Shown piece by piece: positions 546 through 43,318 of a DNA stretch of 64,000 nucleotides (position 1 is the first letter of the stretch; each line of letters begins with the position of its first letter). Position numbers and translations under genes: made by a program. The notes below the pieces were generated by a model that worked only from the letters and a program-made list of their open reading frames with translations, did no database searches and was not told the DNA's origin. This stretch comes from a virus (lineage: Duplodnaviria > Heunggongvirae > Uroviricota > Caudoviricetes). Location: the IMG/VR virus record IMGVR_UViG_3300026472_000003, positions 82,851-146,850 of that record, one strand, 5' to 3'.

Positions 546-2249
546 TTAAAGTCTTGCAACCCAGTCAAAACCAACCGCAGCCAGTTCAGCGGCTGAGAGA
601 TTGATAGTGAAAGTAGTAGAGGTTTTATTTGATACCCAAGCAGAAGATGTTAACTTAACGTTTGGGGATACCACTACGAACGGAGTTCCAGACAGTGTGT
701 GTGTTACCACTAGGGAAGTGTTCCCAGCGGGAATGGTCACCGACCCCCCTTTTGAGTAGGAATTTCCATTCAAAGAGGCAATCCACTCCTCCTCTGTCAG
801 AGGTGTCTGCCCACTGGGGACTGTTCCGACATACACAGCATACGCACTTGCCCCAACAAACCCACGATCTCCCGGTGGCCCTTGCTTGCCCTCAAACTCC
901 GTCCAAGCAGACCAAACGCCATCAACATTGTAGCGGATGTATAGGCTGTTGGTGCCGTTCTCAATAGCCAACATTGTGGCATTGTTGGAGGAGGCTGGGA
1001 GGTATACCCCTCTTCCTGCGGCTACAGTTGGGGCATTTTGAGCAGAGACATTGTAGCTAAACAAAGAGCCATAGACCACTAGGTCGAGGTTCTGGACGCT
1101 CTGTGTGGTTCTTCCTGCAACCCCATACTGACTAACAAAAGACCTTACCCCCGACGGAGATATGGCAACATCTGTCGCAGTTCCACTGTTGGAGACAGCC
1201 GCTGTGGCTATGGAATTTATCCATGCCCCCCATACACCTGAAACCATGTATCTTACCCAAGGCAGTTTACTAGCCTCTTGCCAAGCTATCTGGACAAGGT
1301 CGTTTGCGGATTCGGCAATAATCAGACCCTTTCCCTTAGACCCCATGACCGGGCTGTTAAGAGTAGAGGTAGTCCAGGAGAAATATCCATTTACCTTTTC
1401 CAAGTTTAAGTTTGTTGCTGGAATCAGGGTTGTTTTAACACCCACATTTGTAAGGTCTATGGTCTCTCCAGTCCCGAGGGTTAGGTCATTACCTGATAAC
1501 TTGAGTGTTCCTTTCAGAGTCGTGTTACCGCCAACCTCCAATGAGCCTGTAGTTTTAACAGAGGCAGGTGCTATATGCTCCCCATCTACAGAGGTCTGAA
1601 TGCCAATGACTGAGCCAGTTATCTCTAGGTCTTTTACCACCATTTTTTCTTCAACTGTCAAAGTTTTCACTTTCAGTTCGAAAATGGAAGCGTCCCCAGT
1701 GACTATGAGGGTGGTAGCCTCTGCATTTACCATGAGGATATTCGCAAGTATTTTGCTTATCAAACTGTTGACAAATTTTGTGGTTGCTATACTATCGCTG
1801 TTGTCATCTTCATTTACTGTGGGGGCCTCAGGCAAACCTGAGAAAATTGGGCTATCCTTTGTGGCAAACACATCAGAGATCGTTGCAGAGTCAACAATGA
1901 CTTTCCAGTTACCATCGAGGGAAGGATCGGCTGGTAAAAGAACGGGGTTTGTTGCTGTTGCACTAGGGGCATACCACCAAGAAACAGCCCCGGATATTGG
2001 ATTTGTGTAGGCGTATAGTTGGTTGAATACTTCTGTTGTTTCCCCCTCTTCCCAAGGGATGACCGGGGTTTGATAATACAGATTCTCCAGAAGGGCTTTT
2101 CTGAGGGTGGGGATTAAACTCCCATCCTCTACAGAAATAAACTCAAAATAGCTACCATTGATAACCTTATGCATTCTCCCTGCATCGACGATCAATTGGT
2201 CAATGGCGTCGGCAGTGTTTGTGGAAAATGCCATAGAGATGTCAGACAT
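546..2249 (-). CDS. tail fibre protein (contains collagen-like Gly-X-Y stretch GKQGPPGDRGFVG)
   Basis: 567 aa, S/T/G/N-rich, last gene of the tail-fibre block. Collagen-like motif seen in the translation. Confidence 0.55.
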   Translation of the reverse strand: MSDISMAFSTNTADAIDQLIVDAGRMHKVINGSYFEFISVEDGSLIPTLRKALLENLYYQTPVIPWEEGETTEVFNQLYAYTNPISGAVSWWYAPSATATNPVLLPADPSLDGNWKVIVDSATISDVFATKDSPIFSGLPEAPTVNEDDNSDSIATTKFVNSLISKILANILMVNAEATTLIVTGDASIFELKVKTLTVEEKMVVKDLEITGSVIGIQTSVDGEHIAPASVKTTGSLEVGGNTTLKGTLKLSGNDLTLGTGETIDLTNVGVKTTLIPATNLNLEKVNGYFSWTTSTLNSPVMGSKGKGLIIAESANDLVQIAWQEASKLPWVRYMVSGVWGAWINSIATAAVSNSGTATDVAISPSGVRSFVSQYGVAGRTTQSVQNLDLVVYGSLFSYNVSAQNAPTVAAGRGVYLPASSNNATMLAIENGTNSLYIRYNVDGVWSAWTEFEGKQGPPGDRGFVGASAYAVYVGTVPSGQTPLTEEEWIASLNGNSYSKGGSVTIPAGNTSLVVTHTLSGTPFVVVSPNVKLTSSAWVSNKTSTTFTINLSAAELAAVGFDWVARL

Positions 2250-6904: not shown

Positions 6905-6972
6905 GATGCCTCCTTTGTTAATCTATAATAACACGAATAAGAAAAAAACTCCAGCACGGAATGTTGACGGGG

Positions 6973-8109
6973 TTATTTGAGCTTATAAACTTTAATCTCA
7001 ACATGGGCTGAGATAAGAGAAACTAATTTGATAGCCACTTGAGCTGTACCCAAGACGCCAGAGCTTCCGAATATTGTTACTTGGTCTGTAGACCCAATCA
7101 ACTCAGTGTCCGCTCTACCTATGCCGGTGTTGAGGGTTATGGCTGTTCCTGTCCTTGTAGTTACCGCTATACCCTTTTGCCCAGTCAACTCGACTACGGT
7201 CACAGGGAATGTTGTAGAAAATACCCCAGAGGAGGAGGTAGAGGTAATAGAGAAAACATAGCTCCCTGTAGATGACACCTGCGTCCTATCTAAGGTCATG
7301 AGGTGACAAGCCGCGCCCGGCATCAAAGATCCTGACTGCTCTATGGATACATCTCCAGTAACCACAGCAGTCTGTGGAGAGATACCAAAACTACTTATAG
7401 ATTTAGAGGAGATTTCCAAAGAACCTATCAGGGGCGGTAGCGCATATCTATTTATCTCTTGGATATTAGGGCCTTTATTATTTCTAATCGCAACAGAACT
7501 GACGGAGCTACCTCCCGTGGTAGCTCCGGTAGTCCCCAGGCCTAAGAGATTTGTGTTTTCCGCGTTGATAGTGTTGTCCACTATAGATATACTGTTTTTT
7601 TCTGTATTAAGAGTGTTGATAGTACTATCAACCCCGTATACCGTTGCCCCAGGTGCATTTATTGTGTTTTTTGAAATACTTATGCTTTTTCCTTTTTTAC
7701 TAGAATCTGATATTCGGATTAAATCCAAAATCCCACCCGCCTTCTTGACCCCAAACTTGCTGTTCCTAACTTCTACGTTTTCCGCCGAATATCCATTACG
7801 ACGAGATGTTGGGAGAGCAATGACCTCAACAGTGCAGTTATCCATTACTAGGTTTGACATAGATTTTACATGGGCAGACAACAAGTGCTCTTGTGAAATA
7901 TGGTAGCTTGGGTAGTCGAAGGGGTCATATCCTAATGACTGCATCCTAGTTACAAAATCATCCTCATAAGTATGTTCGTGGTTTAAGATGGTAATGTTTG
8001 AAGACGTCTTTACTTTTAAAGCACAGTTACGGGAAGGTGTGGACATCTCCCTAAACATAAATTTATTAATACATTTGTTGTTATCCATGTGGGTATGCAC
8101 CGATGCCAT
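6973..8109 (-). CDS. tail fibre/spike-like protein with beta-helix-type repeats
   Basis: 378 aa with repeated N-T-I / S-I-S motifs. Confidence 0.35.
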   Translation of the reverse strand: MASVHTHMDNNKCINKFMFREMSTPSRNCALKVKTSSNITILNHEHTYEDDFVTRMQSLGYDPFDYPSYHISQEHLLSAHVKSMSNLVMDNCTVEVIALPTSRRNGYSAENVEVRNSKFGVKKAGGILDLIRISDSSKKGKSISISKNTINAPGATVYGVDSTINTLNTEKNSISIVDNTINAENTNLLGLGTTGATTGGSSVSSVAIRNNKGPNIQEINRYALPPLIGSLEISSKSISSFGISPQTAVVTGDVSIEQSGSLMPGAACHLMTLDRTQVSSTGSYVFSITSTSSSGVFSTTFPVTVVELTGQKGIAVTTRTGTAITLNTGIGRADTELIGSTDQVTIFGSSGVLGTAQVAIKLVSLISAHVEIKVYKLK

Positions 8110-34951: not shown

Positions 34952-35027
34952 TGGTAGCGGGTAGCAGACTCGAACTGCTCTTCATTCGGCGTATGAAACC
35001 GATGACCTCCCCGAGGTCTAACCCGCA
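34952..35027 (-). tRNA. tRNA-Met(CAU), initiator-like
   Basis: Acceptor UGCGGGU/ACCCGCU with 1-72 U.U mismatch. D-arm GACC/GGUC, anticodon stem UCGGU/GCCGA with loop UUCAUAC, T-arm AGCAG-UUCGAGU-CUGCU, CCA encoded. 5' end overlaps the last 10 nt of the HNH ORF. Confidence 0.55.
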
Positions 35028-35545
35028 ATTATTTTGTAATTGAACACAGCAGCCAGGAACTTTTCATCTTCCCTTGTTGAGTGCTCTAGGATATGGCAAT
35101 TTGCACAAAGAAGCTCACACTTTTCTATCTCAGAAAGAAGAATGTCCCAAGACCTGTTTGAAAATCTTCCTATTTCAAAATCTTTGTCTCTCAGATGGTG
35201 GAACTGGAGAGCAGTGGGATTATCATAACCACAACGATTACAACAACCTCCTAAATGGCTTATCGCCTTGAGCTTATTCCTATGTCTTCTTATTTTTGTA
35301 ACGCAAGTGGGGCAGGTGTGTCTTCTTTTACACTCTTTACCACAAACCTTACAGACATTGGTGGAATTTTTCTTATTGTTCGGAAGATTTAGAGTCTTTA
35401 GCTTTAGGGAGACAAGACGAGACTTCATTGTTGAAGTGGGTATGCCATAATGCCTTGCTAGCATACTGACAGAGTGTCCTTGGGCAATAAGATCTTCTAT
35501 TCCTTCCATACATCCTCTAATTGGTGCAGAGGGAAGGTATCGCAC
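35018..35545 (-). CDS. HNH homing endonuclease
   Basis: Cys-rich zinc-finger region and C-terminal ..LLCANCHILEH.. HNH motif, located inside the tRNA array. Confidence 0.65.
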   Translation of the reverse strand: MRYLPSAPIRGCMEGIEDLIAQGHSVSMLARHYGIPTSTMKSRLVSLKLKTLNLPNNKKNSTNVCKVCGKECKRRHTCPTCVTKIRRHRNKLKAISHLGGCCNRCGYDNPTALQFHHLRDKDFEIGRFSNRSWDILLSEIEKCELLCANCHILEHSTREDEKFLAAVFNYKIIAG

Positions 35546-35602
35546 CTTCCTCTAAAGCTCTTCAGGCAATCGCTAATCTCTCTCAGCTACCTCTGCAAAA
35601 CT

Positions 35603-35680
35603 TGGTGGGTAATCTCGGACTCGAACCGAGAAGCTCCTGTTTCTAAAACAGGAAGGTATACCAATTCCCTTCAACTACCC
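35603..35680 (-). tRNA. tRNA with anticodon UAG (Leu by code, but type-I architecture)
   Basis: Acceptor GGGUAGU/AUUACCC, anticodon stem CCUGU/ACAGG with loop UUUAGAA, 5-nt variable loop, T-arm CUCGG-UUCGAGU-CCGAG, CCA encoded. Confidence 0.5.
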
Positions 35681-35785
35681 TGAATATTGCCTCATTAACC
35701 AGGCGCGACCTGAGAAGTTCACCACCGGAGCGATGCTTGAGGACTCCTGTGAAACGAGGAGGCTCTGATTTCCTCTTCGTTAAAT

Positions 35786-35863
35786 TGGTCGGAATTGAAG
35801 GACTCGAACCTTCGACCTCTTAGTCCCAAACTAAGCGCTGCTACCAGACTGAGCTAAACTCCG
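35786..35863 (-). tRNA. tRNA-Pro(UGG)
   Basis: Acceptor CGGAGUU/AAUUCCG, anticodon loop UUUGGGA, T-arm GAAGG-UUCGAGU-CCUUC, CCA encoded. Confidence 0.7.
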
Positions 35864-36089
35864 ATGTATTGCTTTTTAATTGTCCCAGAAGCACTTTCAG
35901 AAAACTGGTATCGCTGGCTAGCGAGTTCATGCCCCCGAAGGGTACAATTTGTTCGCAATGAGCAGGTATCACACCTACTGTCCTCCCCCACCGCTGGGGG
36001 TGCTCGTTACTGAGCTACATTGGCGATTGGTTTGATATGTCGAACTCTTTTTGAGTGCCTTCCGACAATTTACATCAACATATCAAATT

Positions 36090-36165
36090 TGGCGAGGATA
36101 ACGGGATTCGAACCCGTGACTCCGGCGTGACAGGCCAGTATGTTTACCGCTAATACCATATCCCC
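36090..36165 (-). tRNA. tRNA-Asp(GUC)
   Basis: Acceptor GGGGAUA/UAUCCUC, anticodon loop CUGUCAC, T-arm ACGGG-UUCGAAU-CCCGU, CCA encoded. Confidence 0.7.
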
Positions 36166-36170
36166 AGATT

Positions 36171-36256
36171 TGGCGACGAGAGAGGGACTCGAACCCCCAT
36201 AGAGCTTTCGCTCACGGATTAACAGTCCGCCGTTCTACCGAATGAACCATCTCGTC
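36171..36256 (-). tRNA. tRNA-Asn(GUU) with a 15-nt extended variable arm
   Basis: D-arm and anticodon arm (GUUC..GAAC G GCGGA CUGUUAA UCCGU) match the E. coli tRNA-Asn pattern, but the variable region is GAGCGAAAGCUCUAU with its own stem. Acceptor GACGAGA/UCUCGUC is perfect. Confidence 0.55.
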
Positions 36257-36426
36257 ATATTTTTTTTTTAACTTCACACTTAACGGTAGTGACTCACCTT
36301 ACTTTGTATTCGTCGGCCTGCATCTTTCAGCGTCACAGGGAGAGTGCCGTCTCTTTATCCCTATCGAGTAATTACTTTATCAGTGAAAACAACCTTCTGC
36401 AAGAATTATTTTCACTTTTTTCAATT

Positions 36427-36513
36427 TGGTGGGTCGGGTGGGATTCGAACCCAACGATCCCTCGATTAAAAGTCGAGTGCCTTAGTCATACGACGCCGCT
36501 TGGCTACAAACCC
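36427..36513 (-). tRNA. tRNA-Lys(UUU) candidate with enlarged D-loop (possible pseudogene)
   Basis: 3' half is canonical (CUCGA-CUUUUAA-UCGAG, T-arm, CCGACCC-A-CCA). The only 5' partner found (GGGUUUG) leaves a 20-nt D-loop carrying an inserted hairpin. Confidence 0.35.
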
Positions 36514-36659
36514 AGATAGTTGGCAGCTTAGGAGAGTCCTGAGACTTGTCCCGCTGTCTGGTCGAGGCGCTTGCATAGCAGAGGGGCTTCTCAACCTATA
36601 CGGCTTATGTGGGAGATCATCATCGTTCGAGACGAGAGGGGAACTTCCCACTACCTGTT

Positions 36660-36748
36660 TGGAGGAGGGTGACAGAATCGAACTGTCGCCGTATCTCTAC
36701 GACGGGACTGGGTTCAAACCAGATTACGCACCATGCGTCCCACCCTCC
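36660..36748 (-). tRNA. tRNA-Ser(UGA)
   Basis: Class II tRNA, acceptor GGAGGGU/ACCCUCC, anticodon loop UUUGAAC, long variable arm, T-arm GACAG-UUCGAUU-CUGUC. Confidence 0.65.
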
Positions 36749-36827
36749 GAAAATTCGGCATCTAAGCCAGTTAGTGTTTCCCTGGATTTATACACGCTGG
36801 TTCACTAACTCCACGCTCGTGTCGAAT

Positions 36828-36917
36828 TGGCGGAGAAAGAAGGATTTGAACCTTCGGGCCACCTTGGTGACCCCTCCCTTAGCAGGGGAGTGCCTTAAAC
36901 CACTCAGCCATTTCTCC
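36828..36917 (-). tRNA. tRNA-Ser(GCU)
   Basis: Class II tRNA, acceptor GGAGAAA/UUUCUCC, anticodon arm CUCCC-CUGCUAA-GGGAG, long variable arm. Confidence 0.7.
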
Positions 36918-37063
36918 ATTGATTTCTTTTCGAAGATCACGCTTCTCTTTGTTTCTTCCGACGGCTATTGATTGAATCCCCGCAGAGACTCCGCAATTAC
37001 TGCCGTGTAAACGGCACCGACCAAAAACTTTCTTGCAACCCAATAACTTTTGCATATGATCTC

Positions 37064-37471
37064 CTATTTACCTGTTCTGCCGTACTGAGACTTTCTTCTT
37101 TCTGGGCAGTAGTTAGAGGAACTGTACACACGCCTAGCTTCCTTACACAAGTCACAACGGCAATTGTGAGAAGTGTATCTACTAAGTGTCCCATGCTCTG
37201 CAACTGGGCGTCGAGCATCAGCCACATTACAGGAGAGGTGGCTGAAAGAAATATTATTTAAATCAAAGTATAATCCAACAGGGTCTTCGCTGTCCAACCA
37301 AGGAACCAAGTGTTCAATAGAAAATGTATCTCTCGTCATTTTCTCATGACACTTGCAGCAAGTATCCTTACTGGTTTCTATCAGCAAGCCCCAGAGAATG
37401 TCTTTTGTCAACCTTCCTGATGCCGTGCTTGGATTCATACTTAGTTGTTCTTTTTTCTTATCACTCATCAA
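37064..37471 (-). CDS. HNH-like endonuclease (zinc-finger)
   Basis: 135 aa with multiple C-x2-C/H pairs (CCKCHEK.., SHLSCNVA.., CRCDLC), inside the tRNA array. Confidence 0.45.
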   Translation of the reverse strand: MMSDKKKEQLSMNPSTASGRLTKDILWGLLIETSKDTCCKCHEKMTRDTFSIEHLVPWLDSEDPVGLYFDLNNISFSHLSCNVADARRPVAEHGTLSRYTSHNCRCDLCKEARRVYSSSNYCPERRKSQYGRTGK

Positions 37472-37493
37472 CTCTCCTGCGAGGTTAGATTTT

Positions 37494-37587
37494 TGGTGGT
37501 AGAGGAGAGATTCGAACTCTCGGAGCCAGGGTTAACTGGCCCGTCACCTTTCCAAGATGATGTCTTAAGCCTCTCGACCACTCTACC
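37494..37587 (-). tRNA. tRNA-Ser(GGA)
   Basis: Class II tRNA, D-arm like E. coli Ser(GGA) (UGGUCGAGAGGCUUAAG), anticodon loop UUGGAAA, acceptor GGUAGAG/CUCUACC. Confidence 0.65.
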
Positions 37588-37670
37588 GTTTCGCTTTGCC
37601 CTTGGACTCTCACCGTGGTATGCCTTGTAGAACAGATTAACTGGGAACATAGGTCATACGGGCCATCAGG

Positions 37671-37743
37671 GGTGACCTGTGGGTCTCGAACCCACCACCT
37701 CTTAGATCACAACCAAGGGTTCTACCAGATGAACTAAGGCCAC
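37671..37743 (-). tRNA. tRNA-His(GUG)
   Basis: Anticodon arm CUUGG-UUGUGAU-CUAAG, T-arm GUGGG-UUCGAGA-CCCAC. CCA not encoded. 5' G consistent with the G-1 feature. Confidence 0.6.
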
Positions 37744-37814
37744 GTCAAAACATTCTCCCAGCTTCTGAGTGTATTCAAGAGCGGCAGGCCTACCACTTGA
37801 AGAATGTTTTAAGA

Positions 37815-37890
37815 TGGCAAGGGATCGTGGATTCGAACCACGGAATGCTGATATCAAAGACCAGTGCCTTAACCGCTTGGCTAATCCCTT
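37815..37890 (-). tRNA. tRNA-Gln(UUG)
   Basis: Acceptor AAGGGAU/AUCCCUU, anticodon loop CUUUGAU, T-arm CGUGG-UUCGAAU-CCACG. Confidence 0.65.
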
Positions 37891-37891
37891 A

Positions 37892-37978
37892 TGGCAGGAA
37901 GAACAGGATTCGAACCTGTAGTGGGGTTTCCCCGACGGATTTGGAATCCGTTGCGTTCAGCCATTTCGCTACCTCCCT
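37892..37978 (-). tRNA. tRNA-Trp(CCA) with extended variable arm
   Basis: Acceptor AGGGAGG/UCUUCCU-G (Trp-like 5' A and discriminator G), anticodon arm ACGGA-UUCCAAA-UCCGU, variable region CGGGGAAACCCCACU (hairpin), T-arm ACAGG-UUCGAAU-CCUGU. Confidence 0.5.
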
Positions 37979-37980
37979 AT

Positions 37981-38148
37981 TTACAGCGTATAAAGACGAT
38001 TCAAGAACTCTGCTGTTGGTCGCATACTCTCAGCTTGAGCCAAGAATTGTTTATCCAATGCTTCGAGACGGGCTTTGATTCTTGCCACGTCTTCATCAGT
38101 GAAGACCACGGGCCTTGAAGCAATATCAAGAAGCTCTTCTATTGTCAT
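37981..38148 (-). CDS. small hypothetical protein embedded in tRNA array
   Basis: Coding-like composition. Start chosen at the internal ATG (38148) with GAGGU RBS, because the longer ORF (to 38175) would overlap tRNA-Glu. Confidence 0.35.
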   Translation of the reverse strand: MTIEELLDIASRPVVFTDEDVARIKARLEALDKQFLAQAESMRPTAEFLNRLYTL

Positions 38149-38163
38149 CTTTACCTCGTTGTT

Positions 38164-38239
38164 TGGTACTCTCAACGGGATTCGAACCCGTGTTGTCTGC
38201 GTGAAAGGCAGGTGTCCTGATCCTCTAGACGATAAGAGC
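38164..38239 (-). tRNA. tRNA-Glu(UUC)
   Basis: GUCUAGAGG..CAGGACACC..CCUUUCAC pattern as in E. coli tRNA-Glu. T-arm ACGGG-UUCGAAU-CCCGU. Confidence 0.7.
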
Positions 38240-38453
38240 GTTGTGTTCCACAGGCTTCGGGTCTTTCGGGGTTACTCGTTTGTCTACGCTACTATTAACC
38301 CTTATTTGCGTTTGTGATTTCTCACATGGAGACCTATACAGGTCTGTAGACCTAAGAGCGTTTCTGCCTGAAAATCTTGACTGGATTATTCTCAACGATG
38401 AAGACCAGCCTCAAGCATCGTATAGCAAACATACGGGTTTGCAACCTAAGAGT

Positions 38454-38527
38454 TGGAGCGATTAGGGAGATTCGAACTCCACTCTGCGAGGCTTGGAAGG
38501 CCTGCGACACACCTCGTGCTTAATCGC
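38454..38527 (-). tRNA. tRNA-Gly(UCC)
   Basis: Acceptor GCGAUUA/UAAUCGC perfect, anticodon region GCCUUCCAAGC, ends CGCUCCA, 74 nt. Confidence 0.6.
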
Positions 38528-38533
38528 TGAAAC

Positions 38534-38609
38534 TGGTGGGAGTAGGTGGGTTCGAACCACCGACCTGACGCTTATCGAGCGCCTGCTCTACCGACTGAGC
38601 TATACTCCC
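38534..38609 (-). tRNA. tRNA-Ile(GAU)
   Basis: Canonical tRNA: GGGAGUA UA GCUC AGUCGGUA GAGC A GGCGC UCGAUAA GCGUC .. GGUGG UUCGAAC CCACC UACUCCC A CCA. Confidence 0.8.
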
Positions 38610-38620
38610 TCTGTGTTTGT

Positions 38621-38689
38621 TGCATGAATCAGGACTCGAACCTGAACGGGGGCTTTGCAGTCGTCCCCTGACCCTATTGTCGCTTACGC
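38621..38689 (-). ncRNA. tRNA-like element / degenerate tRNA (no canonical D or anticodon arm)
   Basis: Good T-arm UCAGG-UUCGAGU-CCUGA and a 6/7 acceptor pairing GCGUAAG/UUCAUGC, but the centre is a GGGG-N12-CCCC hairpin and no CCA. Confidence 0.3.
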
Positions 38690-38734
38690 TATCGTCGGCT
38701 CTACGTCTACCCATTCCGTCATTCACACGTCATT

Positions 38735-38816
38735 TGGTGGGGCCACCTGGATTCGAACCAGGGCGTGGTATACCGAATTTACAGTCCGGCGCGTTCGGCC
38801 TCTCCGCCATGTCCCC
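38735..38816 (-). tRNA. tRNA-Tyr(GUA)
   Basis: Class II tRNA, anticodon arm CCGGA-CUGUAAA-UUCGG, T-arm CCUGG-UUCGAAU-CCAGG, acceptor GGGGACA/UGGCCCC. Confidence 0.6.
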
Positions 38817-38823
38817 TTTAACC

Positions 38824-39177
38824 TTATTTGGCGCTTGAGATAGATATGATATCTGTTGTGAACGGCATTACTGCCTTTTCATTCTCAGACGCTTTACCTG
38901 TCTCAGCCACTCTTTCATTCTCTTCTGCGTCATCTTCCGCGTTGTATTGAATGTTGAGTTCTTCGCCTTTCTCAATAACATACTTAGCAATCGCTGCACG
39001 GATGTTATCTTTAGTGCCTGTCGCCATCAACAGATCCTTTATGACTCTGTAGGCATCGGGCATAAGAGCAATCATGTTTGTGTTACCATCCAAAACTGCC
39101 TTCTCTACTGCAATCGCGTTAGACTCTTCTTTGAGTGGTCTACCACGACGTCTTTTAATTGGTGGTTTAACTGCCAT
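38824..39177 (-). CDS. small basic protein (AT-hook-like KRRRGRP N-terminus)
   Basis: 117-aa ORF with GAGG RBS, embedded in the tRNA array. Confidence 0.45.
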   Translation of the reverse strand: MAVKPPIKRRRGRPLKEESNAIAVEKAVLDGNTNMIALMPDAYRVIKDLLMATGTKDNIRAAIAKYVIEKGEELNIQYNAEDDAEENERVAETGKASENEKAVMPFTTDIISISSAK

Positions 39178-39199
39178 ATCCTACCTCTCAATATAAGGA

Positions 39200-39228
39200 A
39201 GATTATCATCTATAATCTTGTTCGTCAA
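39200..39228 (-). promoter_or_regulatory. putative sigma70-like promoter (TTGACG-N17-TAATCT) for the 38824..39177 gene
   Basis: Read on the minus strand: -35 at 39223-39228, -10 at 39200-39205. Confidence 0.3.
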
Positions 39229-39266
39229 GAGGTATTTTATCACAAAACCTTTAAAATTTCAAACTT

Positions 39267-39343
39267 TGGAGCAGGGCATCGGATTTGAACCGATAAACAT
39301 CTCGTTTGCGGCGAGAGCCGTTACCTGATTCCGGCAACCCTGC
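39267..39343 (-). tRNA. tRNA-Cys(GCA) (C33 in anticodon loop)
   Basis: Anticodon arm UCUCG-CCGCAAA-CGAGA, T-arm AUCGG-UUCAAAU-CCGAU, acceptor GCAGGGU/GCCCUGC. Confidence 0.5.
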
Positions 39344-39348
39344 ATGTT

Positions 39349-39425
<77 letters not shown>

Positions 39426-39429
39426 TGTC

Positions 39430-39518
39430 TGGTGCGTCCGGTGGGGGTCGAACCCACAATCCCCGTCAGGGGAGGGAGATTTTAAGTCTCCTGTATATAC
39501 CAATTTCACCACAGACGC
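39430..39518 (-). tRNA. tRNA-Leu(UAA)
   Basis: Class II tRNA, anticodon arm GGAGA-CUUAAAA-UCUCC, long variable arm, acceptor GCGUCUG/CGGACGC. Confidence 0.7.
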
Positions 39519-39964
39519 TAATCATCATTTCTGAAATACTCGACAACAATATTATTCTCTGGTAAACGATCTACCTTGTTGTTTTGGACAGATGCCCCAT
39601 AAGTTCCTGCACATGACCTGCTGCAAAAAGGGCCTGCCTTCTTTCGTGACCTGTTTCTAACCTGCGTCACAGACAATTTGAAAAATGTTCCGCAAAACAC
39701 ACAGTTAGAATGCACATCTTTTCTACGCAGAGCGCTCTTCTCAGAGTTCTCCACTACAGATAGGATTTGAAGATTATCCTCATCTTCGTTGAGGAGGTTT
39801 CTGTCCACATGGTCTACCGTTTCATCGTCAGATAGTTCTCTTCCTAGTTTACTCTCCATCAACTGCCGAGGGTAACTCTTGGTGGTTCTCGAACCATCTT
39901 CCTTAGATAGTACCAATATCCTTCTTCCATCTTTCCTTGTGTACGGCCCGTAAATCTTTTTCAA
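39518..39964 (-). CDS. HNH homing endonuclease
   Basis: 148 aa with ..DHVDRNLLNEDEDNLQILSVVENSEK.. (H-N-N/HNH signature). Abuts the tRNA-Leu 5' end. Confidence 0.6.
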   Translation of the reverse strand: MKKIYGPYTRKDGRRILVLSKEDGSRTTKSYPRQLMESKLGRELSDDETVDHVDRNLLNEDEDNLQILSVVENSEKSALRRKDVHSNCVFCGTFFKLSVTQVRNRSRKKAGPFCSRSCAGTYGASVQNNKVDRLPENNIVVEYFRNDD

Positions 39965-40257
39965 TTGAGCCTCCTACAAAACTCTTAGGTCGGAGGCACC
40001 TGACCACCTTGTCGAAGATTTGATTAAGTGATTCATGAGGTCACCTTGGTCATTTCTCCTATCCCGCTCCCTTCAAGACAGTTTGCAACCTGTCAAGATC
40101 TTCGCTGGAAAGTGCGATACCCCGAACTAAGAGTTCTTTCTGTTTGGAGCCGAGTGGTGGAATCTAACCACCTATGTATGGGCAATGACACTATGGTCGT
40201 TTAACCTTTTTCAGGCCTGGATGGGCCTCGCGGTTGACAAACCGCCTACTCGGCAAT

Positions 40258-40333
40258 TGGAGCTGGTTGCAGGACTTGAACCCGCCACCCCCTGCTTACA
40301 AGGCAGGTGCTCTACCATATGAGCTAAACCAGC
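40258..40333 (-). tRNA. tRNA-Thr(UGU)
   Basis: GCUGGUU UA GCUC AUAUGGUA GAGC A CCUGC CUUGUAA GCAGG .. UUCAAGU .. AACCAGC U CCA. Confidence 0.75.
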
Positions 40334-40740
40334 ATGACATGTTGTCTCCGATAGACGCCTGGAGGTGTGGAGCGGCATATCTTATGACCGACCAGCCTGT
40401 AACCCAGGGTTTGAAGGAACTTTGTTTTTTAAGGCTTCACGTTTGAACTGCTAAACTTTAACCTTTCACACTTGAGGGGAGTTCACAGCCTCCTAAGAGC
40501 CGAAGCGAACTTAACCCGATGAACTTTGAGACATGAACTTTGAAGGTTTTTTCGAATGTATTCGAAACATCTTACGGTTATCATATCAGATAATCACCAT
40601 TATGTGTGTTGAGGTAGTTTAACCTCCAACCTCGATAGAGGTAAGATGTAACCACATCGTGATACCGAAAACAACATGTAAAACTTTAACAGCTTTATTA
40701 AGGAATCACAAGAGGTTATTCAAGGATTCCGTAAATTTTG

Positions 40741-41391
40741 TTACTCTGCCTTAGCAGGTTCCACTTCAATCTCTGTACGAGCGTTAGACTCGGAGAGAGC
40801 GAAGTCAACTTCGGTTAAGAAGTCGTCGATTTCTGTTTCCAGAGCTTCGATAACTGCTGCAAGCCCTGTTGGATCGTACAACGCTGGTTCACCACGTTGA
40901 CGGAGAGGTACAGCGATACCCTCTACTTCATCGCCTTTAGTGGCACGGTCACGACCTAACAGTGTATCCAACTTGCTAGACAAAGCCGCGTCAAATTCAC
41001 TGGAACGCTTGCTGAACTGGATCATCCCCATGTTATACAGCGCTTTCATCTTAGCTAAGAGGCCCTGACGAAGCACAACGCTACGCTTCTGCTCAATTGC
41101 TTGGGCTACAGTGGTCTCTTTACCACCAATGGTGACCAAGGTCACAGCATTTGACTGGATAATCCCAGCTTTCAGCAAGTCACGCATTGTCAGCATATCC
41201 GTAATAGACTGCAATTGAGACTGGGCCTTAGTGGCGAAATCAGTGGCGGTGACGGTTTTACCCGTGAGTTTCAGATAAGTACCTTGTCCTTCGGTCACTG
41301 CGACCAAGTCAAGACGCTCAGTTTGTTTAAGCAGCTTTGCGTCGAGGGACTTCAAAGTTGCCAGAGCACGGGTAATAGACATCTTAGCCAT
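40741..41391 (-). CDS. hypothetical protein
   Basis: 216-aa ORF with GGAG-type RBS, between the two tRNA clusters. Confidence 0.45.
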   Translation of the reverse strand: MAKMSITRALATLKSLDAKLLKQTERLDLVAVTEGQGTYLKLTGKTVTATDFATKAQSQLQSITDMLTMRDLLKAGIIQSNAVTLVTIGGKETTVAQAIEQKRSVVLRQGLLAKMKALYNMGMIQFSKRSSEFDAALSSKLDTLLGRDRATKGDEVEGIAVPLRQRGEPALYDPTGLAAVIEALETEIDDFLTEVDFALSESNARTEIEVEPAKAE

Positions 41392-41468
41392 TGTATTTCT
41401 CCTCTATGGATTTTAATTTTGAGTTTTAAGTTTAGTTCTTGCCGACATCCTTGTCAGCTTTGCAGTTA

Positions 41469-42080
41469 TTACTGCTTGCCAGTCTGAACAACTACCGCAG
41501 CGCGGTTGGCGTCAGCTTTAGCGATTTCCAGACGAGTGTCACGTTCTGCCTTGATCTGGTCACGCAGTTCTGCTACCTGAGCTTCAAGGTCTTTGATTCG
41601 GCTGTCTTTTGCAGTGTTACCCGCGTTCAGTTCAGCAATCGCAATCTTGTGCGTGGATTCCTGTGAGGACAGGCGAGCTTGCAGCTCACGAGCGCTTGAG
41701 GACTGTGCAGCGGCGACAGCAGAGGTAACTGCGTCTTCGTTACTGTCCAGAGCGTTGCTCAGGTCGTTACGGAGCTGAGAAACTTCTTCCGGCTTGATGC
41801 TAACCAGGCCACGAGCTTTCAGAATCGAGTTCACAACTGCGTCTTCGTTTTCCAGCGTCTTGATTTTCAGCACAGATTTAGCTTCTGCAAGTTTTTCGTC
41901 GTACTGAGTTTCGATCTGAGACAGTTCTTTCTGCTTGAACTGGATTTCCTGAGAAATCTGCTCAGATCCTTCTGCCAAGCCCTGTAGCTCAAGGACAACC
42001 TTACTCAGGTTACCTGATGCAGCAGCTACAGCTTTGGTTGCACGTTCGGTTACGGACACTACAGTTTTTACGTCAGACAT
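41469..42080 (-). CDS. coiled-coil hypothetical protein
   Basis: 203 aa, E/Q/A/K-rich heptad character, GAGGGG RBS. Confidence 0.45.
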   Translation of the reverse strand: MSDVKTVVSVTERATKAVAAASGNLSKVVLELQGLAEGSEQISQEIQFKQKELSQIETQYDEKLAEAKSVLKIKTLENEDAVVNSILKARGLVSIKPEEVSQLRNDLSNALDSNEDAVTSAVAAAQSSSARELQARLSSQESTHKIAIAELNAGNTAKDSRIKDLEAQVAELRDQIKAERDTRLEIAKADANRAAVVVQTGKQ

Positions 42081-42107
42081 GTTATTTTCCCCTCTCTAGG
42101 ATTTAAG

Positions 42108-42254
42108 TTAAACGTCCAAGTCGTATTTACGACGGGACTCTTCAATAATTTCTTTGGTAGTCATGGTGTTCTCTTGACCTATCCAGTAATACCAAAGAAA
42201 GATTACTACACTCAATACTGTCATTACCCCGAAGGACACTAACGGCGAAGGCAT
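42108..42254 (-). CDS. small hydrophobic protein (48 aa, not in ORF track)
   Basis: ATG at 42254 preceded by AGGAG. Translation MPSPLVSFGVMTVLSVVIFLWYYWIGQENTMTTKEIIEESRRKYDLDV. Confidence 0.35.
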   Translation of the reverse strand: MPSPLVSFGVMTVLSVVIFLWYYWIGQENTMTTKEIIEESRRKYDLDV

Positions 42255-42339
42255 ATGCACTCCTATTTGTTTTCACGTAAAGCACTTTCGTCCATTTAAG
42301 CTATCACCCTGTGCCATTACGCGAGCCGGGTCAGCAAGA

Positions 42340-42420
42340 CTGGGAGTCGAACCCAGATCTCTCTACATGAAAATTGGCAGTGTACCTCGGGTTCGAACCA
42401 AGACGCTACGAGGAGCTACC
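42340..42420 (-). ncRNA. tRNA-like degenerate element with two T-arm-like motifs
   Basis: Contains CUGGG-UUCGACU-CCCAG and CUUGG-UUCGAAC-CCGAG followed by GUACACU-G-CCA, but no matching 5' acceptor or anticodon arm was found. Confidence 0.25.
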
Positions 42421-42530
42421 TCGTCTGCTGTTGACCTTCGTCCTGCTTTGCCTTTCACCGCATTCCTGCCGCTCGTCAGCCACAATGTTTCGGCTTCCAG
42501 CAAAGAGACTCTTCAACATACACCATAACT

Positions 42531-42606
42531 TGGTGGGATGTACAGGCTTCGAACCTGTGACCTACGGATTAAGAATCCGCCGCTCTACCTACTGGGCTAA
42601 CATCCC
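42531..42606 (-). tRNA. tRNA-Lys(CUU)
   Basis: GGGAUGU UA GCCC AGUAGGUA GAGC G GCGGA UUCUUAA UCCGU .. ACAGG UUCGAAG CCUGU ACAUCCC A CCA. Confidence 0.75.
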
Positions 42607-42777
42607 AAATTTGTGCCAGACCAGTATTTTAAGTCCCCTGTCTGGCGTGAGGGAGACTATCTGCCATTGAGAGGTGACACCTTACTACGACCCTAACGAC
42701 CTGCAACTCCTTCCAATGGTTGGCTCATGCACTCGTTAGCGCCGATTCAGGACAATCCTTCTCGACAGCAAATCAGG

Positions 42778-43119
42778 TTACTTTTTCTTTTTGGAAGAAC
42801 CTTTAGATTCTACCGCCTTCGCTTCGACCTTAGTCTCACGAGACTTACTCAGGCGCTCACGCTTAGTTTTGCCTGTTCGGATACGATGAGAAACAGAAAT
42901 TACCTGACCACCTTCAACACTTGTCTTCGACTCCCAGAGGTAAACTACGTTACCGTCTTCGTCACGTCCTTTCTTGCGAACAGAAACCGTCTTGGTTGTA
43001 CCGCCAAGACGAAGGTCTTTAGCAGGTGAAGAAGTCTGTGTTGACTTCGAGTCAAAAGAGAAAGGCTGCTTAATCGCGTCGATTGCAGAGACTTTCTTAG
43101 CAGTGTTTTTCTTAGCCAT
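42778..43119 (-). CDS. small lysine-rich basic protein
   Basis: 113 aa, K/S/T-rich with a KKKK C-terminus, AGGAGA RBS. Confidence 0.45.
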   Translation of the reverse strand: MAKKNTAKKVSAIDAIKQPFSFDSKSTQTSSPAKDLRLGGTTKTVSVRKKGRDEDGNVVYLWESKTSVEGGQVISVSHRIRTGKTKRERLSKSRETKVEAKAVESKGSSKKKK

Positions 43120-43241
43120 CTTATGTTTCTCCTATTTGGATTATTTTATCTAACGTTTTGTTTTCTTTGTGTCTTTCAATGTCGGTAAGAGTAATCTCTT
43201 TTCTTCTCATTGTCAACACTTATTTTAAATCTTTTTTTGTT

Positions 43242-43318
43242 TGGTGGCCCATGCCGGACTCGAACCGACAACCGAGCGATTATGAGTCGCTTGCTCTAAC
43301 CAATTGAGCTAAAGGGCC
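43242..43318 (-). tRNA. tRNA-Met(CAU), elongator or Ile2-type
   Basis: GGCCCUU UA GCUC AAUUGGUUA GAGC A AGCGA CUCAUAA UCGCU .. UCGG-UUCGAGU-CCGGC AUGGGCC A CCA. Confidence 0.65.

Follow-up and report, generated by a model that had tools for sequence, protein, structure and literature searches.

The variable loop of a tRNA-Asn(GUU) gene from a Caudoviricetes virus contains a small base-paired hairpin, although in the textbook view long variable arms are confined to the tRNAs for Leu, Ser, Tyr and Sec. The gene lies in a 64,000-nucleotide (nt) stretch of IMG/VR record IMGVR_UViG_3300026472_000003 (positions 82,851 to 146,850; the window, Table 1), and hairpins of the same form but of different sequence are found at the same place in the tRNA-Asn genes of many phage lineages. 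This long-arm tRNA-Asn is a widespread, virus-enriched variant, and there is very little doubt in our view that it is a functional tRNA-Asn under structural selection. An anti-nuclease role, in which the arm would shield a working tRNA, best fits the circumstantial evidence.

A tRNA-Asn with a class-II-like variable arm

Both ARAGORN and Rfam identify the gene, which encodes its own CCA end. The match to RF00005 spans the full-length model (36174-36256; 61.5 bits against a gathering threshold of 29 bits), and the alignment places an insertion of 11-12 nt exactly in the variable region. Read 5' to 3', the RNA is GACGAGA UG GUUC AUUCGGUA GAAC G GCGGA CUGUUAA UCCGU in its first half and GAGCGAAAGCUCUAU GGGGG UUCGAGU CCCUC UCUCGUC G CCA in its second half, and has the 7-bp acceptor stem, the D, anticodon and T arms and the T-loop (UUCGAGU) of a canonical elongator tRNA. 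Within the 15-nt variable region, the hairpin GAGC-GAAA-GCUC (36202-36213) forms a 4-bp stem capped by a GAAA loop, and is followed on its 3' side by three unpaired nucleotides (UAU). The cloverleaf that includes this hairpin has a predicted free energy of -32.0 kcal/mol, equal to the unconstrained minimum free energy (MFE); single-sequence MFE folding gives no clean cloverleaf, and with the cloverleaf iso-energetic for tRNA-Asn, MFE alone is uninformative. By shape the molecule belongs to class II, having a variable region of more than 10 nt in the form of a stem-loop, whereas its isotype does not: the anticodons of this tRNA and of a second expanded one in the window are GUU (Asn) and CCA (Trp), and bacterial class II comprises Leu, Ser and Tyr, or Sec.

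The identity set of E. coli asparaginyl-tRNA synthetase (AsnRS) comprises the anticodon nucleotides G34, U35 and U36 and the discriminator base G73. The window tRNA has GUU at positions 34-36 (36221-36223) and G73 immediately before the encoded CCA. Over positions 10-43, which cover the D and anticodon arms, it is identical to E. coli tRNA-Asn at 33 of 34 nucleotides, with no difference in the anticodon stem-loop. The enterobacterial genes (asnT/U/V/W) share its anticodon, its discriminator and its T-loop; they differ in the variable loop (the 5-nt AUGUC in the host, 15 nt with a hairpin in the phage), in the first acceptor pair (U1-A72 against G1-C72) and at position 15 (G against U). The reading of this region in the first-pass annotation, made from the letters alone, is thus confirmed in its descriptive parts: the 15-nt hairpin with its 4-bp stem, the near identity of two arms to those of E. 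coli, the same kind of expansion in a tRNA-Trp, and the abnormality of long arms for both isotypes.

The insertion does not have the character of an intron, as the Rfam E-value scan returned no intron-family match, bulge-helix-bulge geometry is absent and the 10 extra nucleotides lie in the variable loop. No bacterial mechanism is known that would remove such a hairpin after transcription, and the mature tRNA would be expected to retain it.

Structural conservation and distribution of the long arm

Megablast of the window gives patchy matches, of about 81-90% identity and confined to tRNA genes, to phages of the Vequintavirinae, namely Erwinia phages Hena1 and pEp_SNUABM_01, Klebsiella phage KB57 and Escherichia phage 4MG. 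The order of terminase, three open reading frames (ORFs) and tRNA cluster is common to the window, Hena1, KB57 and 4MG, and these two lines of evidence together make the window phage a relative of that group. In all four phages a tRNA-Asn of 82-89 nt is annotated at the same place. Comparison with homologous phages had been named at the outset as a way to overturn the hairpin; it yielded the same fold, and what had been treated as the peculiarity of one phage is a shared feature. Further carriers are a Phapecoctavirus (nepoznato), the T4-like Aeromonas phage PX29, the Pseudomonas jumbo phage Psa21 and the Demerecviridae, in which an 83-nt form with GUCGAAAGAC occurs in 291 records among the matches listed. 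In phiCbK, long-arm genes are found for tRNA-Lys. The long-arm genes are annotated plainly as tRNA-Asn in GenBank records, and the searchable full-text literature, which does not extend to the older subscription papers on T5/BF23 tRNAs, yielded no description of a long variable arm on a phage tRNA-Asn, tRNA-Thr or tRNA-Trp; the papers on the defence systems PARIS and OLD employed such phages, and the word 'variable' does not occur in them.

A pattern scan of IMG/VR, with the anticodon arm GGACUGUUAAUCC followed 14-30 nt later by GGUUCGA, returned at least 119 loci. All loci pooled give 110 distinct long-arm tRNA-Asn(GUU) sequences with 96 distinct variable regions. Here, pairs were defined by folding each sequence, and the fair test is therefore a shuffle control and not the percentage paired. 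Hairpins of at least 3 bp form in 81 of the 96 variable regions, as against 28.7 +/- 3.7 in shuffles, and GNRA caps are present in 60 (GAAA in 42), as against 0.84 +/- 0.85. The stems themselves vary freely, with 32 different 3-bp stems and 4-6 pair types at each stem position, and the loop-closing pair is C-G in 48 of 69 cases. Because hairpins and GNRA caps are in excess over shuffles while the stems vary with compensation, the arm is selected for structure and not for sequence.

The geometry is uniform: a stem of 3-4 bp with a 4-nt loop, preceded on the 5' side by 0-1 and followed on the 3' side by 3-4 unpaired nucleotides, as would result if a hairpin were placed between positions 45 and 46 in a loop of 5 nt. 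This arrangement matches the arms of phage tRNA-Tyr, and not those of phage tRNA-Ser (4-7 bp, 1-nt 3' spacer). Bacterial and phage tRNA-Tyr, which are natural class-II molecules, have variable regions 13-16 nt long, stems of 3-4 bp and the same spacers; they differ in isotype (here Asn, or Trp and Thr), in having A73 instead of G73, in the D arm, which is of class-I type in the window copy, and in being rarely GNRA-capped (7 of 74), whereas the Asn long arms mostly are.

The first-pass annotation had also considered an insertion scar. A neutral scar or pseudogene, left by a mobile element or by recombination, might be suspected from the ORFs resembling HNH homing endonucleases that are interspersed in the cluster and from a degenerate tRNA-Phe-like gene nearby. 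We regard it as scarcely tenable, given the bit score, the encoded CCA and the intact stems of the window tRNA-Asn, and given that different families have the insertion at one and the same site, where changes in the stem compensate each other and hairpins far outnumber those in shuffles.

The body of the tRNA has retained its Asn character. The GUU anticodon and G73 are present in 107 of the 110 long-arm sequences (G73 also in 93 of 98 short-loop viral tRNA-Asn), and the 1-72 pair is U1-A72 in 73 and G1-C72 in 34 (107 of 110 together). G73 and U1-A72 point to Asn ancestry and not to derivation from tRNA-Tyr by a one-base shift of the anticodon; the nearest-paralogue analysis within loci, which addressed that origin, gave identities of 0.64-0.74 that are biased by length. 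The bodies otherwise vary greatly, their D arms coming in dozens of forms, and the long-arm tRNA-Asn is either an old family or the product of repeated convergence. An earlier suggestion that the tRNA serves as an anti-nuclease decoy agrees less well with these data, as conserved Asn identity elements fit a working tRNA instead.

Retention of these elements also bears on a possible switch of identity, in which the long arm would turn the tRNA into a substrate of SerRS or TyrRS and AAC/AAU codons would partly be read as Ser or Tyr, much as with the allo-tRNAs and the nematode nev-tRNAs. G73 together with a long variable arm constitutes the main SerRS signal (PMC7609411), the geometry of the arm resembles that of tRNA-Tyr, and GUU is one base away from GUA. 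We nevertheless find such a switch very improbable. The arm is short and its 3' spacer long by comparison with phage tRNA-Ser; the window tRNA has U11-A24 in place of C11-G24, together with A2-U71, C3-G70 and a normal 7/5 acceptor/T stack, and does not show the combination expected of a SerRS substrate (4-7 bp or more, a 3' spacer of at most 1 nt, and Ser-type stems or an 8/4 or 9/3 stack). The Asn signature (GUU, G73 and mostly U1-A72) is kept in 107 of 110 sequences, Tyr identity requires A73, and proteome-wide misreading of Asn codons as Ser would be harmful. The allo- and nev-tRNAs likewise combine a class-II shape with the anticodon of a class-I amino acid, but they have long arms and 8/4 or 9/3 stacks, and are charged by SerRS, AlaRS or LeuRS depending on the body, whereas the window tRNA-Asn retains the identity elements for Asn and combines a 7/5 stack with an arm that is very short.

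When the length window was widened to N7-30, 120 viral loci matched the pattern with the Asn anticodon arm, of which 19 are long-armed (about 16%), the other 101 having loops of 4-6 nt. Two samples that were not ascertained on Asn, one anchored on the anticodon arm of tRNA-Trp and one on a generic D arm, contain 5 of 39 and 2 of 42 long-arm tRNA-Asn, respectively; the long arm thus occurs in roughly 5-16% of viral tRNA-Asn. In these two unbiased samples it is found in loci with at least eight tRNAs (7 of 48) and not in smaller ones (0 of 33). Among cells, the long-arm pattern was found at only 30 loci in a collection of 185,579 bacterial and archaeal species, each represented by a single genome, which we read as a very low frequency and not as a measured ratio. 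Seventeen of the 30 are recognizable tRNA-Asn, 10 of them located in arrays that contain 7-36 tRNAs per 8 kb. Cellular carriers such as L230, L231, L235 and L254 (Micromonospora/Verrucosispora), L256 (a Methyloprofundus metagenome-assembled genome) and L238 mostly have the gene within dense arrays of 21-36 tRNA genes per 8 kb, which suggests that the feature is shared by tRNA arrays of mobile or phage origin. None of 5,426 complete E. coli genomes contains a match over at least 80% of the window tRNA-Asn, although all of them contain an ordinary tRNA-Asn gene (median four copies). Common in large phages and near-absent from cells, the long arm on tRNA-Asn is a virus-specific structural signature.

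Mini-arms also occur sporadically in many class-I phage isotypes. When the unbiased samples are pooled, 38 of 1071 class-I tRNAs have 9 nt or more in the variable region, and the two ordinary isotypes enriched for it, by about 2.5-fold, are Asn(GUU) (7 of 81) and Thr(UGU) (7 of 88; p about 0.02-0.03). The tRNAs with anticodon UAU (tRNA-Ile 'tat' in ARAGORN; IMG/VR loci L026, L029, L178, L220, L264 and L270) form a distinct case with conserved sequence: their variable regions are 21-26 nt long, the arm loop is repeatedly CAGAUUAG or AGAUAA, and 4 of the 10 such tRNAs in the unbiased samples are of this kind.

The composition of the arm can also be read as an aid to folding or stability, in which a stem capped as C(GNRA)G would rigidify the core of a rapidly made, under-modified phage tRNA-Asn and let it fold and persist in the absence of host modifications, with no nuclease involved. 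C-G closure and a GNRA loop, both frequent here, are thermodynamically the most stable combination; GNRA caps are likewise common in the variable arms of phage tRNA-Leu (62 of 135) and tRNA-Ser (95 of 186), which gives them the look of a generic stable-arm design, and similar arms appear sporadically in many isotypes. We consider this explanation unlikely, since it accounts neither for the preference for Asn(GUU) and Thr(UGU), nor for the near-absence of the arm from cellular tRNA-Asn, nor for the shrunken arms in the same phages, such as the 5-nt loop of tRNA-Leu(UAG) and the unstructured 11 nt of tRNA-Tyr in the window.

A recognition handle has a somewhat lower probability still. The arm would then mark the tRNA as 'self' for a phage factor acting in host-tRNA degradation, in repair or modification or in processing, or would tune the interaction with AsnRS. 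Its confinement to phages with large tRNA clusters, its uniform geometry and the general use of GNRA loops as docking motifs for protein and RNA are what such a handle would predict. The carriers, however, are extremely diverse (Vequintavirinae, Demerecviridae, Stephanstirmvirinae, Straboviridae, Pseudomonas jumbo phages and actinobacterial tRNA arrays), no shared partner gene turned up, though no systematic search for one was made, and free stem variation with non-invariant loops argues against sequence-specific reading. The regulatory handle and the processing role proposed in the first-pass annotation find no support.

Two further tRNAs of the window are expanded. The variable region of tRNA-Trp(CCA) has homologues in Hena1 (CGGGGAAACCCCAUU) and in the unrelated T4-like Erwinia phage IT22 (CGGAGAAAUCCCGCU, with a compensatory change from G:C to A:U). 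Long-arm tRNA-Trp is rare, being found at about 1-2 of 120 viral loci that have the Trp anticodon arm, and this rarity rules out the long arm as a general feature of tRNA-Trp. The third expanded tRNA, tRNA-Lys(UUU), had been overlooked; its additional hairpin lies in the D-loop and covaries in two of the relatives, where the corresponding insertion is CGACGUAUGUCUAA in 4MG, with a compensatory change from U:A to A:U, and AGACGCAAGUCGAUA in pEp_SNUABM_01, whereas the tRNA-Lys of Hena1 and KB57 has none. As this D-loop insertion adds to the variable-arm cases, the lineage puts small hairpins into both size-tolerant loops of the tRNA, the variable loop and the D-loop. Expanded phage tRNAs can be missed in annotation, as ARAGORN did with this tRNA-Lys gene.

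The arm as a possible shield against defence tRNases

Several defence nucleases cut the anticodon arm of specific host tRNAs. AriB of PARIS cleaves the E. coli tRNAs Lys(UUU) and Thr(UGU), and secondarily Asn(GUU), at 40|41 within UAAUC|N, and in an AlphaFold 3 (AF3) model a second AriB subunit contacts U16-U17 of the D-loop (PMC12409363). OLD cuts after positions 27-29, removing the anticodon arm (bioRxiv 10.64898/2026.07.10.737580), and the bacterial Schlafen protein RorSlfn5 cuts at positions 29-32 and 39-41 (PMC13056530). Class-II tRNAs are absent from the reported targets of AriB, OLD and RorSlfn5. Phage tRNAs counter these systems: the T5 versions of tRNA-Lys, tRNA-Thr and tRNA-Asn neutralise PARIS (PMC12409363), and phage tRNA-Thr(UGU) genes counteract OLD (bioRxiv 10.64898/2026.07.10.737580). 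The window tRNA-Asn is encoded in a phage cluster and is an isoacceptor of a host tRNA, Asn(GUU), that AriB targets, and the long-arm tRNA-Asn probably belongs with the phage-encoded, defence-related tRNAs.

We tentatively propose the following mechanism. The phage tRNA-Asn would be charged by AsnRS and would read AAC/AAU, and the stable, tetraloop-capped hairpin of 3-4 bp built into its variable loop lends a class-I tRNA a class-II outline. Projecting from the junction that tops the anticodon stem, the arm would sterically hinder defence tRNases of the host or of a competitor that have to grip this stem, such as AriB (40|41), OLD (after 27-29) and Schlafen-type nucleases, and the phage tRNA-Asn would survive while the host tRNA-Asn is destroyed. 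Such a steric shield is plausible, if well short of established. With slightly more reserve, we consider it possible that large phages insert a hairpin into a size-tolerant loop in general, be it the variable loop (Asn, Thr(UGU), Trp) or the D-loop (Lys(UUU)), by which decoding and charging would stay host-like and the fit to the nuclease would be lost.

A phage variable loop that sets nuclease resistance has a precedent in T5 tRNA-Tyr, which resists Retron-Eco7 through its variable loop (PMC13096335). In the window phage, all three isoacceptors of AriB targets deviate from the host, each at a relevant place. The tRNA-Thr(UGU) reads UAAGC|A at positions 36-41, where the host tRNA has UAAUC|A (PMC12409363), a change of the same kind as that reported at position 39 for the PARIS-resistant tRNA-Lys of T5. 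The anticodon stem of tRNA-Lys(UUU) keeps UAAUC|G, and the D-loop hairpin of this tRNA is relevant because the AF3 model of AriB contacts U16-U17. The tRNA-Asn keeps UAAUC|C at positions 36-41, as E. coli does, and has its arm beside the cut strand; its difference from the host sits in the variable region, and not in the cleavage site or motif as in evasion of the T5 type. In accordance with a shield, the enrichment of arms on Asn(GUU) and Thr(UGU) falls on two of the three tRNAs that AriB targets, the third being Lys(UUU).

The T5 tRNAs for Lys, Thr, Asn and Tyr are, like the window tRNA-Asn, phage isoacceptors of nuclease-targeted host tRNAs, and they are altered so that they escape cleavage (PMC12409363, PMC11464382, PMC13096335). 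Those for Lys, Thr and Asn owe their escape to base changes in the D-loop or at the cleavage site, and the variable loop of T5 tRNA-Asn is normal, whereas the window tRNA-Asn keeps the cleavage motif, adds a whole helix and may owe a resistance to it. Both forms occur among closely related Demerecviridae, where, in a comparison of partial hit lists, one of two tRNA-Asn alleles occupies the syntenic Cys-Asn-Asp locus. The T5-type allele combines a short loop with an altered anticodon stem (134 records among the matches listed); the 83-nt allele combines a host-like anticodon arm with the hairpin (the 291 records given above). The two alleles look like alternative solutions to one problem. Alleles of 87 nt and 75 nt of tRNA-Thr(UGU) are similarly mixed among these Demerecviridae.

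The tRNA-Thr(UGU) of phage Bas33 (HildyBeyeler) has the same kind of arm on a class-I isotype, in an 87-nt tRNA with AGGAGUAAUCCCGUU, i.e., A-GGA-GUAA-UCC-CGUU. It differs from the window tRNA-Asn in isotype and phage family, and its arm is unmentioned by its authors. Expression of this tRNA strongly restores plating of OLD-sensitive phages (bioRxiv 10.64898/2026.07.10.737580), and an arm-bearing class-I tRNA is therefore functional in E. coli.

Several observations weigh against a shield. The tRNAs of T4 and T5 escape by point changes. The arm is unnecessary for resistance to OLD, since the tRNA-Thr of Bas32 is a normal 75-nt tRNA that works equally well as that of Bas33 and is intact on a northern blot under OLD (bioRxiv 10.64898/2026.07.10.737580). 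The expectation that arm-bearing tRNAs keep UAAUC more often was not borne out, the two showing no association in the sampled phage tRNAs (arm-bearing against arm-less, 3 of 5 against 12 of 34 for Asn, and 7 of 15 against 40 of 95 for Thr). Asn, which is only a secondary target of AriB, most often carries the arm, whereas the primary target Lys(UUU) rarely does; the isotype enrichment is modest and its link to AriB is post hoc. [quoted passage not shown] Most of the sampled phages come without a host assignment, so that no specific nuclease can be named for them. In addition, the arm was looked for and found absent in the PARIS-neutralising tRNA-Asn of T5, and the tRNA-Asn of the BASEL phage DaisyDussoix is likewise of the T5 type; the published PARIS data thus say nothing on the arm.

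Nucleases of the colicin E5 type act on the tRNAs for Tyr, His, Asn and Asp, and natural class-II tRNA-Tyr is among their substrates. We rejected them as the driver, since tRNA-His and tRNA-Asp rarely carry arms and a class-II tRNA is cut.

If the arm does block defence tRNases, the shield would constitute a second, shape-based route of tRNA immune evasion in the arms race between phages and bacteria, distinct from the known route by point mutation, and it would explain why the PARIS/OLD-family TOPRIM and Schlafen tRNases have no class-II targets. It would further yield a simple design rule for tRNAs that withstand nucleases, of use in phage therapy or synthetic biology, and the geometry by which PARIS, OLD and Schlafen nucleases recognise tRNA could be tested directly through the grafting or removal of a 10-nt hairpin.

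Other features of the tRNA cluster

The tRNA cluster lies downstream of the portal and large terminase genes. Three small Cys-rich ORFs inside it (Table 1) give weak Pfam matches to HNH, HTH or zinc-finger families and are probably homing endonucleases, as in the tRNA regions of T5, Hena1 and the BASEL phages.

Table 1. Positions of the features discussed, in the window unless another locus is named
Feature	Position	Strand	Source or remark
Phage tRNA cluster	34952..43318	-	20 ARAGORN calls and 2 Rfam-only calls
tRNA-Asn(GUU) gene, 86 nt including encoded CCA	36171..36256	-	ARAGORN and Rfam RF00005
15-nt variable region GAGCGAAAGCUCUAU of tRNA-Asn	36199..36213	-	Rfam alignment, hairpin folding, covariation
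tRNA-Trp(CCA), 87 nt	37892..37978	-	ARAGORN, Rfam
Variable region CGGGGAAACCCCACU of tRNA-Trp	37920-37934	-	3 bp with GAAA loop, then 4 unpaired nt
tRNA-Lys(UUU), 87 nt	36427..36513	-	Rfam RF00005, 44.7 bits; missed by ARAGORN
14-nt D-loop insertion CGUCGUAUGACUAA of tRNA-Lys	36482-36495	-	3-bp mini-hairpin; 13-nt insertion in the Rfam alignment
tRNA-Thr(UGU), normal length, U73	40258..40333	-	ARAGORN
tRNA-Leu(UAG)	35603-35680	-	
tRNA-Tyr(GUA)	38735-38816	-	
Phe-like tRNA, anticodon GAA	35525-35596	-	Rfam only, 44.5 bits
Cys-rich ORF	35018-35545	-	weak Pfam matches
Cys-rich ORF	37064-37471	-	weak Pfam matches
Cys-rich ORF	39518-39964	-	weak Pfam matches
tRNA-free spacer	36257-36426		
tRNA-free spacer	36514-36659		
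tRNA-Asn allele, L260 (T5)	6953-7030		compared with the next two
tRNA-Asn allele, L263 (Bas28 IrmaTschudi)	1083-1168		
tRNA-Asn allele, L019			
'tRNA-sup(tca)' of Hena1, L001	10272-10379		annotated in Hena1, 108 nt

The Phe-like tRNA has an aberrant T-loop (UGCGAUA) and overlaps the start of the first Cys-rich ORF; at the corresponding place KB57 annotates a 'tRNA-Pseudo-GAA'. The two tRNA-free spacers, of about 150-170 nt, flank tRNA-Lys and contain neither a convincing ORF nor an Rfam match. At comparable places, T5 encodes stable RNAs that are not tRNAs. The 'tRNA-sup(tca)' that Hena1 annotates beside its tRNA-Thr has no equivalent in the window according to ARAGORN or Rfam.

Two further tRNAs of the cluster have reduced variable regions. 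The tRNA-Leu(UAG), with A73, has a variable loop of only 5 nt (AGCUU) and is thereby class-I-shaped, the reverse of the Asn case; 79 of 185 distinct phage tRNA-Leu in the sampled loci (about 43%) are without a long arm. The 11-nt variable region of tRNA-Tyr(GUA), UAUACCACGCC, has no evident stem, and among phage tRNA-Tyr with long variable regions 24 of 98 yield no hairpin. The stemless arm of the window tRNA-Tyr may be linked to the PtuAB/Septu nucleases that cut the variable loop of this isotype.

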